Shown here: piece after piece, positions 48,721 through 52,043 of the stretch | Numbering within the stretch: the first letter of the stretch is position 1 | How the letters are laid out: each line of letters starts with the position of its first letter | Source of the DNA: Escherichia coli | GTDB lineage: Bacteria > Pseudomonadota > Gammaproteobacteria > Enterobacterales > Enterobacteriaceae | Strand: one strand, 5' to 3' | Length of the DNA: 64,000 nucleotides | Assembly (NCBI RefSeq): GCF_024298765.1 | Contig: NZ_CP101210.1 | The notes under the pieces: model-generated | Database searches by the model: none | Told to the model about the DNA's origin: nothing | Seen by the model: only the letters and a program-made list of their open reading frames with translations | Position numbers and translations under genes: made by a program

Positions 48721-50712
48721 ATGTCCTCACGTAAAGAGCTTGCCAATGCTATTCGTGCGCTGAGCATGGACGCAGTACAGAAAGCCAAATCCGGTCACCC
48801 GGGTGCCCCTATGGGTATGGCTGACATTGCCGAAGTCCTGTGGCGTGATTTCCTGAAACACAACCCGCAGAATCCGTCCTGGGCTGACCGTGACCGCTTC
48901 GTGCTGTCCAACGGCCACGGCTCCATGCTGATCTACAGCCTGCTGCACCTCACCGGTTACGATCTGCCGATGGAAGAACTGAAAAACTTCCGTCAGCTGC
49001 ACTCTAAAACTCCGGGCCACCCGGAAGTGGGTTACACCGCTGGCGTGGAAACCACTACAGGTCCGCTGGGTCAGGGTATTGCCAACGCAGTCGGTATGGC
49101 GATTGCAGAAAAAACGCTGGCGGCGCAGTTTAACCGTCCGGGCCACGACATCGTCGACCACTACACCTACGCCTTCATGGGCGACGGCTGCATGATGGAA
49201 GGCATCTCCCACGAAGTTTGTTCTCTGGCGGGTACGCTGAAGCTGGGTAAACTGATTGCGTTCTACGATGACAACGGTATCTCTATCGATGGTCACGTTG
49301 AAGGCTGGTTCACCGACGACACCGCAATGCGTTTCGAAGCTTACGGCTGGCACGTTATTCGCGGCATCGACGGTCATGACGCGGCATCCATCAAACGCGC
49401 AGTAGAAGAAGCGCGCGCAGTGACTGACAAACCGTCCCTGCTGATGTGCAAAACCATCATCGGTTTCGGTTCCCCGAACAAAGCCGGTACGCACGACTCC
49501 CACGGTGCGCCGCTGGGCGACGCTGAAATTGCCCTGACCCGCGAACAGCTGGGCTGGAAATATGCACCGTTCGAAATCCCGTCTGAAATCTATGCTCAGT
49601 GGGATGCGAAAGAAGCAGGCCAGGCGAAAGAATCCGCATGGAACGAGAAATTCGCTGCTTACGCGAAAGCTTATCCGCAGGAAGCCGCTGAATTTACCCG
49701 CCGTATGAAAGGCGAAATGCCGTCTGACTTCGACGCCAAAGCGAAAGAGTTCATCGCTAAACTGCAGGCTAACCCGGCGAAAATCGCCAGCCGTAAAGCG
49801 TCTCAGAATGCGATTGAAGCGTTCGGCCCGCTGTTGCCGGAATTCCTCGGCGGCTCTGCTGACCTGGCACCGTCTAACCTGACCCTGTGGTCTGGTTCTA
49901 AAGCAATCAACGAAGATGCTGCGGGTAACTACATCCACTACGGTGTTCGCGAGTTCGGTATGACCGCGATTGCTAACGGTATCTCCCTGCACGGTGGCTT
50001 CCTGCCGTACACCTCCACCTTCCTGATGTTCGTGGAATACGCACGTAACGCCGTACGTATGGCTGCGCTGATGAAACAGCGTCAGGTGATGGTTTACACC
50101 CACGACTCCATCGGTCTGGGCGAAGATGGCCCGACTCACCAGCCGGTTGAGCAGGTCGCTTCACTGCGCGTGACCCCGAACATGTCCACATGGCGTCCGT
50201 GTGACCAGGTTGAATCCGCGGTCGCGTGGAAATACGGCGTTGAGCGTCAGGACGGCCCGACTGCGCTTATCCTCTCCCGTCAGAACCTGGCGCAGCAGGA
50301 ACGTACTGAAGAGCAGCTGGCAAACATCGCGCGCGGTGGTTATGTGCTGAAAGACTGTGCCGGTCAGCCGGAACTGATCTTCATCGCGACCGGTTCTGAA
50401 GTTGAACTGGCGGTTGCTGCCTACGAAAAACTGACTGCTGAAGGCGTGAAAGCGCGCGTGGTTTCCATGCCGTCTACCGACGCGTTCGACAAGCAGGATG
50501 CGGCTTACCGTGAGTCTGTACTGCCGAAAGCGGTTACTGCACGCGTTGCGGTGGAAGCGGGTATTGCTGACTACTGGTACAAGTATGTTGGCCTGAACGG
50601 TGCTATCGTCGGCATGACCACCTTCGGTGAATCTGCTCCGGCAGAGCTGCTGTTTGAAGAGTTCGGCTTCACCGTTGACAACGTTGTTGCGAAAGCGAAA
50701 GCGCTGCTGTAA
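48721..50712 (+). CDS. tktA: Transketolase 1
   Basis: Recognised TktA over full length; start at [14 protein letters not shown] (663 aa). Confidence 0.95.
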
Positions 50713-50734
50713 TCGGTAAGATGCTTTGTGAGAA

Positions 50735-50759
50735 GGGCCGCGAAAGCGGCCCTTTTTTT
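50735..50759. terminator. Rho-independent terminator after tktA, overlapping the stop of the convergent SPFH gene
   Basis: GGGCCGC-GAAA-GCGGCCC followed by TTTTTTT. Confidence 0.75.
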
Positions 50760-51666
50760 ACTTAGTAGAGATAAACGGAACTGTACTGCCGGGGATCATG
50801 GTATCGGGTAGCTTACCGTCCCAACGCTCAGCAGTGGTGAGGGCAACAAGTCCGGGATTATCCCGCAGAGCTTCACCGCGCAGGCGGATCGCTTCTGCTT
50901 CAGCCGCACTTTTTAAACGAATAGTTTCAGCCTCTGCCGCGCCTCTTACGCGAATAGTCTCAGCTTCTGCTTTGGCTGCCGCCAGTTTACTGTCTGCTTC
51001 AGCCTGGGCCTGAGTTACTGCTATTTGCGCCTGGATTTTCTCTGTTTCCAGATTTTGCTTACGTGTGGCAATGGCGACTTCTGCTTTCATTCGATCTTCA
51101 ATCGATTTTTCATAAGCGTCAGAAAAATCAATATTTTCAATCTGGACACCATCAATCACCACCGGGCCAACAACGGCTTTACGCATTGCATTTTGCAGAT
51201 CCTGAACCAGTTTTGTACGATCCTGTACCGCGCTGATGGCGGTATATTGGCCGAAAACGTTCTCCAGTTGAGTTGGCAGCTGGCGGACGATCAGACGCTC
51301 TTTTAAAGATTCAATGGTGTTGTAGGTTGTATAAACTGCGCCAGCTTCTGAAGGTTTAATGTGGAAGCTGACTGATACTGTCATTTGTGCCGGTTGCTGG
51401 TCGCGGCTGTAGGCCTGTAATCCCTGATAAACCACAGCCTGATTACGCGTGGAAATTTTCTCCACGCTTTCCATAAAAGGGATCTTAAAACCCAGACCCG
51501 GCTCGGCAACTTTTACGATTTTTCCGTAGCGCAGCAAAATGCCGCGTTCACCTTCATTAACGGTGTAATACGAGAGAAATGGCAGCACAACCACGGCAAG
51601 CACGCCAATGACGATAGCAATAGATTTTTGTGGGCGAAATGAGGTTATTGAAACAGGTGCTTTCAT
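50758..51666 (-). CDS. SPFH/band-7 (stomatin/prohibitin-like) membrane protein with C-terminal Ala/Glu-rich repeats
   Basis: 302-aa ORF with N-terminal TM helix and band-7-like core; C-terminal AEAE(T/A)IR(L/V)(R/K)(G/S)A repeats. Confidence 0.65.
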   Translation of the reverse strand: MKAPVSITSFRPQKSIAIVIGVLAVVVLPFLSYYTVNEGERGILLRYGKIVKVAEPGLGFKIPFMESVEKISTRNQAVVYQGLQAYSRDQQPAQMTVSVSFHIKPSEAGAVYTTYNTIESLKERLIVRQLPTQLENVFGQYTAISAVQDRTKLVQDLQNAMRKAVVGPVVIDGVQIENIDFSDAYEKSIEDRMKAEVAIATRKQNLETEKIQAQIAVTQAQAEADSKLAAAKAEAETIRVRGAAEAETIRLKSAAEAEAIRLRGEALRDNPGLVALTTAERWDGKLPDTMIPGSTVPFISTK

Positions 51667-52043
51667 GACAATCTTCCTTGAGTAAAGTGTGGGAATATGT
51701 CACATGAGGTGAGGAGAAAACAGCCTACAGGTGAGAATTCAGAATCTATAAAGGGGTATAGCGAAAAAACATTGCATTAAAAAAGTATGTTTTCGGACAT
51801 TCAATAAATAAATGGCGATATGTATCACAAATACAACAACAATCAAAATGTTGATTTTGTGATAAACATAACAAATACAAAGTTGACTTTAAAAATATCA
51901 ATTTCATTTTGTTGTTATTTAAAGTTTTATTATTTTTGTTCATGGGGTTTTTCTTCTCGCGTACCCAATTGCTTTCATTAAACCGCACGAGTATTTTATT
52001 TTTACCGCCGGACGGTACCCTAAAAATAAAATAAGGATAATTT

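Follow-up and report, generated by a model that had tools for sequence, protein, structure and literature searches.

Work on the SPFH biology of Escherichia coli was carried out in K-12, to which four SPFH proteins are ascribed. HflK and HflC make up the FtsH-modulating periplasmic SPFH cage of this species, QmcA faces the cytoplasm, and QmcA-YbbJ and YqiK-YqiJ are the SPFH-NfeD pairs of K-12. In SPFH complexes of solved structure, the SPFH domains and CC1 make up the wall of a cage attached to the membrane, and CC2 together with the C-terminal part forms its lid (PMC12478178). SPFH3 (HflKC) and SPFH4 have been treated as sister groups; the SPFH4 members, or 'p-prohibitins', are periplasm-facing by prediction and none had been studied at the time of that paper (PMC2636767). 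Here we describe a gene lying between tkt and cmtB whose product is, with good confidence, a single-pass inner-membrane SPFH protein of the bacterial 'prohibitin-like' type, ancestral and cage-type, without an NfeD partner gene.

The gene was found in a stretch of 64,000 nucleotides of E. coli DNA (hereafter the window), where a program-made list of open reading frames contains a 302-aa ORF with an ATG start at 50758..51666 on the minus strand, stop codon included. It is the only substantial ORF in the stretch from the stop codon of tkt (50710-50712) to the start of cmtB (52044), and it is preceded by a good Shine-Dalgarno sequence, AAGGAAG, 6 nt 5' of its start. The gene is convergent with tkt, from which it is separated by a spacer of 45 bp, and divergent from cmtB. 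The initial annotation had described a 302-aa stomatin/prohibitin-like gene convergent to tktA, and the ORF, a Band_7 match and the orientation of tkt all agree with this description. The locus is 100% identical to that of E. coli strain 104 (chicken), and the identical sequence in NZ_CP029164.1 is annotated by PGAP as a 'prohibitin family protein'; the identification of the gene relies on the ORF list, Pfam PF01145, PGAP and dN/dS. It is an ordinary, known member of its family, annotated in more than 1800 RefSeq genomes. Nothing specific to the gene, to its WP accessions or to its locus was found in literature searches.

The profile search that the initial annotation had called for upheld its SPFH/band-7 identification. 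The protein matched Pfam PF01145 (Band_7) with E=3.5e-30 and 105.8 bits against a cut-off of 23.6, over aa 35-210 (51037..51564, minus strand) and positions 2-176 of the 176 positions of the profile, and structural searches likewise returned SPFH proteins. Among sequences of solved structures, the best matches were HflC (4.5e-14), HflK (4e-11) and QmcA (4.9e-7), while eukaryotic prohibitins were matched weakly, from 2.7e-5 (human PHB1) to 1.6e-4. Despite its PGAP name, the protein is thus nearer in sequence to HflC/HflK than to PHB1/2 among solved structures. The match to HflC takes in the anchor region (aa 16-81 against HflC 6-75), and the Ala/Glu repeat region was aligned with ...AEAERQGRIMRGEGDAEAAKL of HflC. 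The equivalog cut-offs were nevertheless not reached for HflC (60.7 bits against 134.4 and 53.9 against 427 for TIGR01932 and NF008259) or HflK (37.7 against 159.4 and 35.7 against 660 for TIGR01933 and NF008181), nor was that of FloT NF058507 (17.3 against 700). Because the scores lie far below the curated NCBIfam cut-offs, the protein is an orthologue neither of HflC or HflK nor of any other SPFH protein of K-12, and an HflKC-like function cannot be assumed. No family of the PADLOC-DB v2 defence models was matched at E<=0.01.

An AlphaFold2 monomer model was built from 22 homologues (mean pLDDT 82.6). It consists of a membrane helix at aa 13-32 (51571..51630, minus strand), an alpha/beta SPFH core at aa 33-181, an uninterrupted helix of 87 residues at aa 183-269 (50860..51120, minus strand) and a less confident tail. 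The long helix, delimited from the model, Foldseek and composition, has a pLDDT of 84-94 over most of its length, contains 25% Ala and 15% Glu, and corresponds to the wall and lid helices (CC1/CC2) of SPFH cages. Full-length Foldseek matches, with about 300 aligned columns, were obtained with HflC (E 1.6e-17) and PHB2/PHB1 (E ~3e-15), and further ones with erlin1/2, stomatin, QmcA, flotillin and vault protein, so that all SPFH cages of solved structure are represented. In the model, the domain order of cage-forming SPFH proteins is complete: membrane helix, SPFH domain, long Ala/Glu-rich helix and conserved C-terminal tail. An Ala/Glu/Arg-rich helix with RG..AEA motifs is the normal CC1/CC2 region of SPFH proteins. 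A Fourier analysis of hydrophobicity along helix 183-269 gave no heptad (3.5) or hendecad (3.67) peak above shuffled sequences, and the 11-aa units present in this helix are therefore not called hendecad coiled-coil repeats; this null result fits the published remark that neither a polar nor a hydrophobic bias is seen in CC1-CC1 contacts (PMC10153343).

HflC/HflK (PDB 7vhp, 7vhq, 7wi3, 9cz1) are among the closest described systems and are the best matches in both sequence and structure. They share with the protein the N-terminal anchor, the SPFH domain, the Ala/Glu/Arg-rich helix with RG..AEA, the C-terminal tail and the lack of NfeD, and probably the same outward topology. They differ in that a single gene is present here rather than a K/C pair, and neither hflX nor ftsH is linked to it. 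The likeness to the p-prohibitins and to PHB1/PHB2 (PDB 8rrh, 9o9z, 9unl) lies in the N-terminal anchor, a length of about 300 aa and the CC1/CC2 architecture; PHB1 and PHB2 form an alternating heterodimer ring, whereas the protein described here is presumably a homo-oligomer. QmcA-YbbJ and YqiK-YqiJ (PDB 8z5g) have the SPFH cage fold in common with it, but no NfeD gene adjoins the SPFH gene here and the sequence similarity is lower (E 4.9e-7, as above). In E. albertii, Kluyvera and Klebsiella, too, the gene stands alone, with no NfeD gene beside it. By gene arrangement and published description, the protein fits the lone NfeD-less 'p-prohibitins' of SPFH4 (PMC2636767).

The orientation of the protein in the membrane can be approached from the charges that flank its helix, with a net charge of +3 in the 14 residues before it and 0 in the 15 after it. 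The positive-inside rule, and the similarity to HflC that includes the anchor, would make the helix a signal anchor whose N-terminal end lies inside, leaving a short N-terminal stretch in the cytoplasm and the bulk of the protein in the periplasm. This difference in charge is modest, and QmcA and flotillin, too, match the protein over its full length in structure, as would be the case if the protein faced the cytoplasm like QmcA and the flotillins and acted as a generic membrane-microdomain scaffold rather than as a periplasmic cage of the HflKC/prohibitin type. We regard the cytoplasmic orientation as unlikely, although it keeps some weight: the best sequence matches, N-terminal anchor region included, are the periplasm-facing HflC and HflK; the NfeD partner that goes with the cytoplasm-facing stomatin and flotillin types is missing; and an outward orientation is predicted for SPFH4 (PMC2636767).

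The distribution of the gene was determined in 5426 complete E. coli genomes. It is present in 1830 of them, including O25b:H4-ST131, Nissle 1917, ATCC 25922 and NRG 857C, and a different segment, found in K-12, B and O157 among others and termed here K-12-type, occupies the site in 3595. Since together these two forms cover 5425 of the 5426 genomes, they constitute two mutually exclusive haplotypes. K-12-like, B and O157:H7 genomes have a tkt-cmtB spacer of 313 bp without the gene, in agreement with the initial annotation, which knew of no gene at this place in K-12. When the K-12-type spacer was compared with the window by BLAST, identity stopped just past the tkt stop codon and resumed at 51966 (CAATTGCTTTCATT), 78 bp before the cmtB ATG. 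The haplotype-specific segment of the gene-bearing form therefore extends over 1252 bp (50714..51965), against about 234 bp of unrelated sequence in the K-12-type form, which has its own terminator hairpin and shows a faint collinear similarity in the AT-rich part only. The source of the K-12-type segment was sought with its 24-nt terminator hairpin against one genome per species, which gave 48 matches. This hairpin was located 3' of tkt in one genome alone, that of Escherichia sp. E1V33, whose sequence at this place is 97-98% identical to that of E. coli; the other matches were unrelated generic hairpins.

A gene that two thirds of the complete E. coli genomes lack, and that adjoins an AT-rich segment (26-30% G+C), could be a horizontally acquired accessory islet, gained by the lineage of this strain and not lost by K-12. 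Plasmid relatives might be taken to point the same way: 'prohibitin family proteins' 72-74% identical to this one are encoded on conjugative Enterobacter and Kosakonia plasmids (IncFII/IncR, with F-type tra operons), and others, 58% identical, on Pseudomonas plasmids (IncP-7, e.g. pCAR1). The plasmid copies lie between traB and traV of the conjugation operon or in the plasmid backbone, the hypothetical genes flanking them have no Pfam match and no NfeD, and their products, of the same length, differ from the present protein in having two of the 11-aa units described below instead of three. The genomic context argues against such an acquisition. In E. albertii, the gene is convergent to tkt and also lies between tkt and cmtB. 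In Kluyvera and in another enterobacterium, with a 92.8% identical tkt, it has the same orientation, tail-to-tail with tkt, though the other neighbour differs, being epd-pgk-fbaA and an alpha-mannosidase gene, respectively. In Klebsiella spallanzanii it lies beside epd-pgk-fbaA as in Kluyvera, on a contig that ends just past the gene. Furthermore, no integrase, IS element or direct repeat is present at the boundaries of the segment, no plasmid copy comes as close as the chromosomal orthologues (80-95% identity), and basal B2 strains have the gene. Acquisition as an islet is thus improbable. The synteny in E. albertii, Kluyvera, Klebsiella and the other enterobacterium shows instead that the gene is ancestral and vertically inherited, the K-12 state being a derived loss, and the suggestion that this strain carries an extra gene has to be turned round.

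The gene also bears the mark of selection. Its dN/dS against orthologues ranged from 0.027 to 0.066, the value against E. albertii being 0.027; at ratios of 0.03-0.07 the gene is functional and constrained, under strong purifying selection.

The distal third of the long helix carries three units of 33 nt, or 11 aa, at aa 233-265 (50872..50970, minus strand): u1, AEAETIRVRGA (50938-50970), u2, AEAETIRLKSA (50905-50937), and u3, AEAEAIRLRGE (50872-50904). The initial annotation had described a C-terminus built of repeats of about 11 aa, mirrored by near-tandem DNA repeats at about 50880..51010. The units themselves are real, but they do not form the very C-terminus, as 37 residues follow them, and at the DNA level the repetition is weak: the units are identical to each other at 26/33, 20/33 and 18/33 positions (55-79%), the longest word repeated within the gene is 12 nt, and Tandem Repeats Finder reported no 33-nt array in the gene, only three short chance arrays.

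It had been proposed that these repeats could vary in copy number, and we compared them across strains with a 120-nt query spanning the three units. Among complete E. coli genomes, 1829 were matched, all at a single place, over at least 80% of the query and with at least 90% identity; the full-length query spans that were sampled measured exactly 120 nt in 59 cases out of 59, and the full-length gene copies of the spread sample (n=59) spanned 909 nt, with one of 910. No indel across the units was detected in any of the 1829 gene-bearing genomes, and a synthetic two-unit query gave no single-piece match, only two-piece matches spanning three units. Within E. coli, copy-number variation is thus refuted. 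The initial annotation had set against its own reading a gene conserved in K-12 with an invariant number of repeats; the gene is absent from K-12, and the number of repeats is invariant. Three assemblies have contig ends at the u1/u2 boundary, and no long repeat accounts for these breaks. An IS insertion hot spot at this boundary was considered and rejected, as no complete genome is interrupted there.

Differences in length do exist between genera, and they amount to exactly 11 aa. Two units are present in all orthologues of Kluyvera, Klebsiella, Kosakonia, Erwinia, Mixta, Salmonella, Pseudomonas and Dokdonella, and three in those of E. coli, Shigella and E. albertii, the unit amino-acid sequences being identical in E. 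albertii. Deletions of 11 or 22 aa in the region occur in scattered singleton proteins (P0011 and P0015 are examples), mostly from metagenome assemblies, and in one E. albertii variant of 280 aa (P0013). These steps of 11 aa and rare deletions are what a slippage-prone contingency repeat, modulating the protein through a copy number that varies between strains, might produce. With no indel and no two-unit allele in 1829 complete genomes, DNA units that are only 55-79% identical and escape Tandem Repeats Finder, and unit sequences unchanged in E. albertii, we consider a contingency repeat extremely improbable. The repeat DNA is an old, diverged duplication whose copies are too diverged to slip. 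Since other genera have two units and both E. coli and E. albertii have three, two units are the norm of the family, and the third arose by an in-frame duplication preceding the E. coli-E. albertii split and has been fixed since.

At the 3' end of the gene, the spacer contains a hairpin, GGGCCGC-GAAA-GCGGCCC (50735-50752), followed on the plus strand by seven T (50753-59), with a 7-bp G+C stem and a GAAA loop; the stop codon of the SPFH gene (50758-60) lies inside this T-tract. Compared with shuffled controls, folding of the spacer was strong on the plus strand (-29.7 kcal/mol, z -4.9) and less so on the minus strand (-18.1 kcal/mol, z -3.4), where the sequence following the hairpin, UUCUCAC, is a poor U-tract. 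A proper U-tract is present on the tkt strand only, and the hairpin is therefore a canonical intrinsic terminator for tkt (50735..50759, plus strand) and at best a weak one in the direction of the SPFH gene; the claim that both genes share a terminator hairpin is retained for tkt and much reduced for its neighbour. A promoter and terminator scan did not call the tkt hairpin, the T-tract having probably been consumed by a G-U extension of the stem. Across E. coli strains, the tkt-SPFH spacer contains zero, one or two copies of a REP/BIME-containing unit of about 162-174 bp, and in these other strains each unit has duplicates of the tkt hairpin at its ends.

On the other side, the region that separates the SPFH gene from the divergent cmtB (51667..52043) is AT-rich, with a G+C content of 26-39% overall and of 26-30% over 51700-52000. 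It presumably holds the promoters of both genes; a strict consensus scan passed no promoter, and an Rfam search of 50600-52150 at E<=1 gave only two sub-threshold chance matches. Its conservation between E. coli and E. albertii is poor, and it is barely alignable, except beside the SPFH start. The initial annotation noted here a long AT-rich region with a small doubtful ORF, and its caution was justified: an 80-aa ORF (51746..51988, minus strand) remains open in three E. coli strains, yet Pfam gives no match for it and E. albertii lacks a counterpart.

By analogy with HflK/C and the mitochondrial prohibitins, the protein would probably assemble into a homo-oligomeric ring or cage of about 20-24 subunits, attached to the inner membrane on its periplasmic side. 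Its long helices would form the wall and the lid and might enclose either a patch of membrane or clients. Among the latter, FtsH is a candidate, as for HflK/C, and a respiratory or transport protein, or nothing specific, are alternatives. To our knowledge, no interaction of the protein with FtsH has been described. On the opposing side, deletions of several lone SPFH genes in P. aeruginosa had little or no phenotype (PMC13086221). Published data relate the number of subunits to the length of CC1 (subunit number = 0.1782 x CC1 length + 10.22; PMC12624060), and a CC1 of about 60-70 residues would by this regression give about 21-23 subunits. The 11 residues specific to Escherichia equal about three turns of helix (~16 A), and by the same correlation they would add about two subunits; as far as the monomer model shows, the extra unit may lie in CC1 or at the CC1-CC2 bend, and it could lengthen either the wall or the lid.

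A more ambitious proposal is that the protein is a functionally distinct fifth SPFH cage of E. coli, kept in B2 and further ExPEC-rich lineages and lost in the A/B1/E-type haplotype, in which the 11-residue extension of Escherichia would alter cage height and subunit number, and for which the close relatives in F-type tra operons would point to the support or insulation of envelope-spanning machines as its role rather than to simple redundancy with HflK/C. We advance this proposal as a long shot to which we assign a low probability.

Some consequences of modest practical value follow for the study of these proteins. The family, the annotation and the architecture were already known; SPFH work centred on K-12 misses a fifth gene. 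The locus also provides a clean two-allele marker. Because everything upstream of -78 of cmtB is different in the two haplotypes, the cmt operon, described as cryptic in K-12, may also differ in expression between them. Versions of the protein with two units and with three occur naturally and are suited to a simple test of the rule linking CC1 length to stoichiometry. A third of sequenced E. coli strains, including ST131, Nissle 1917 and ATCC 25922, have a fifth SPFH protein that is conserved and, as judged by dN/dS, under selection.

The truly copy-number-variable element of the tkt-SPFH locus is non-coding. It lies in the spacer between tkt and the SPFH gene and consists of the tkt terminator hairpin together with two inverted palindromes recognisable as REP sequences in a BIME-like arrangement. 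In the window, the spacer (50713-50757) contains one hairpin and no REP/BIME unit. In L002 and L001, two comparison loci carrying the SPFH gene, the spacer carries one unit of about 162 bp (L002 1634-1825) and 2.1 units of 174 bp at 98% identity (L001 1634-2003), respectively. Copy numbers read from the locus spans in a spread sample of ten gene-bearing genomes suggest that the unit is absent from two of them, single in six and duplicated in two. At the adjoining end of tkt (last codons at window 50692-50709), the C-terminus of transketolase is polymorphic: it ends in ...AKAKALL in the window and L002, while K-12-type genomes and L001, which carries the SPFH gene, both have ...AKAKELL. The two endings vary independently of the SPFH haplotype.

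Within the SPFH gene, contigs from three independent short-read assemblies (an NCBI isolate, a Logan assembly and an ENA metagenome) stop at nucleotide 735/736, precisely at the boundary between u1 and u2, the first two of its three 33-nt units (L017 3001-3736, L018 3001-3735 and L019 2558-3292; equivalent to window ~50931). A 'partial' protein cluster of 759 members corresponds to this break. No repeat longer than 12 nt was found at the break point, and no complete genome carried a gene interrupted at the u1/u2 boundary; the breaks are possibly an artefact of the assembler or of coverage.

The SPFH haplotype is also present in strain EV36 mutant 1a (NZ_CP093368.1). EV36 is a K-12/K1 hybrid laboratory strain, and the haplotype presumably entered it on the donor segment from which it also received the K1 capsule region close by.

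A total of 82 plasmid records matched the SPFH protein at E<=1e-40, 34 of which were typed as conjugative. IncFII/IncR plasmids from Enterobacter and Kosakonia carry close homologues, with 72-74% identity, within F-type conjugation operons, flanked by traB and traV. In Pseudomonas plasmids, among them pCAR1 (IncP), homologues with 58% identity belong to the plasmid backbone and adjoin sppA. Such genes were located at L013 4001-4891, at L015 5905-6789 (NZ_CP103496.1) and, on pCAR1 (NC_004444.1), at L016 5905-6786; a Pfam search of the hypothetical genes adjoining the plasmid homologues gave no match. The sole 'plasmid' match to the E. coli gene came from NZ_CP134663.1, a 4.9-Mb E. coli record among the entries of the plasmid collection that is evidently a chromosome.

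On the cmtB side, only the last 78 bp upstream of the start codon (window 51966-52043) are common to both haplotypes, as judged against the K-12-type spacer (L003 1614-1926). Beyond them, all of the sequence upstream of the cmt operon differs (window 51667-51965), and the window form contains a 21-nt imperfect inverted repeat with TGTGAT/ATCACA motifs (51818-51869). As the haplotypes diverge beyond these 78 bp, the cmt regulatory region is therefore haplotype-specific.
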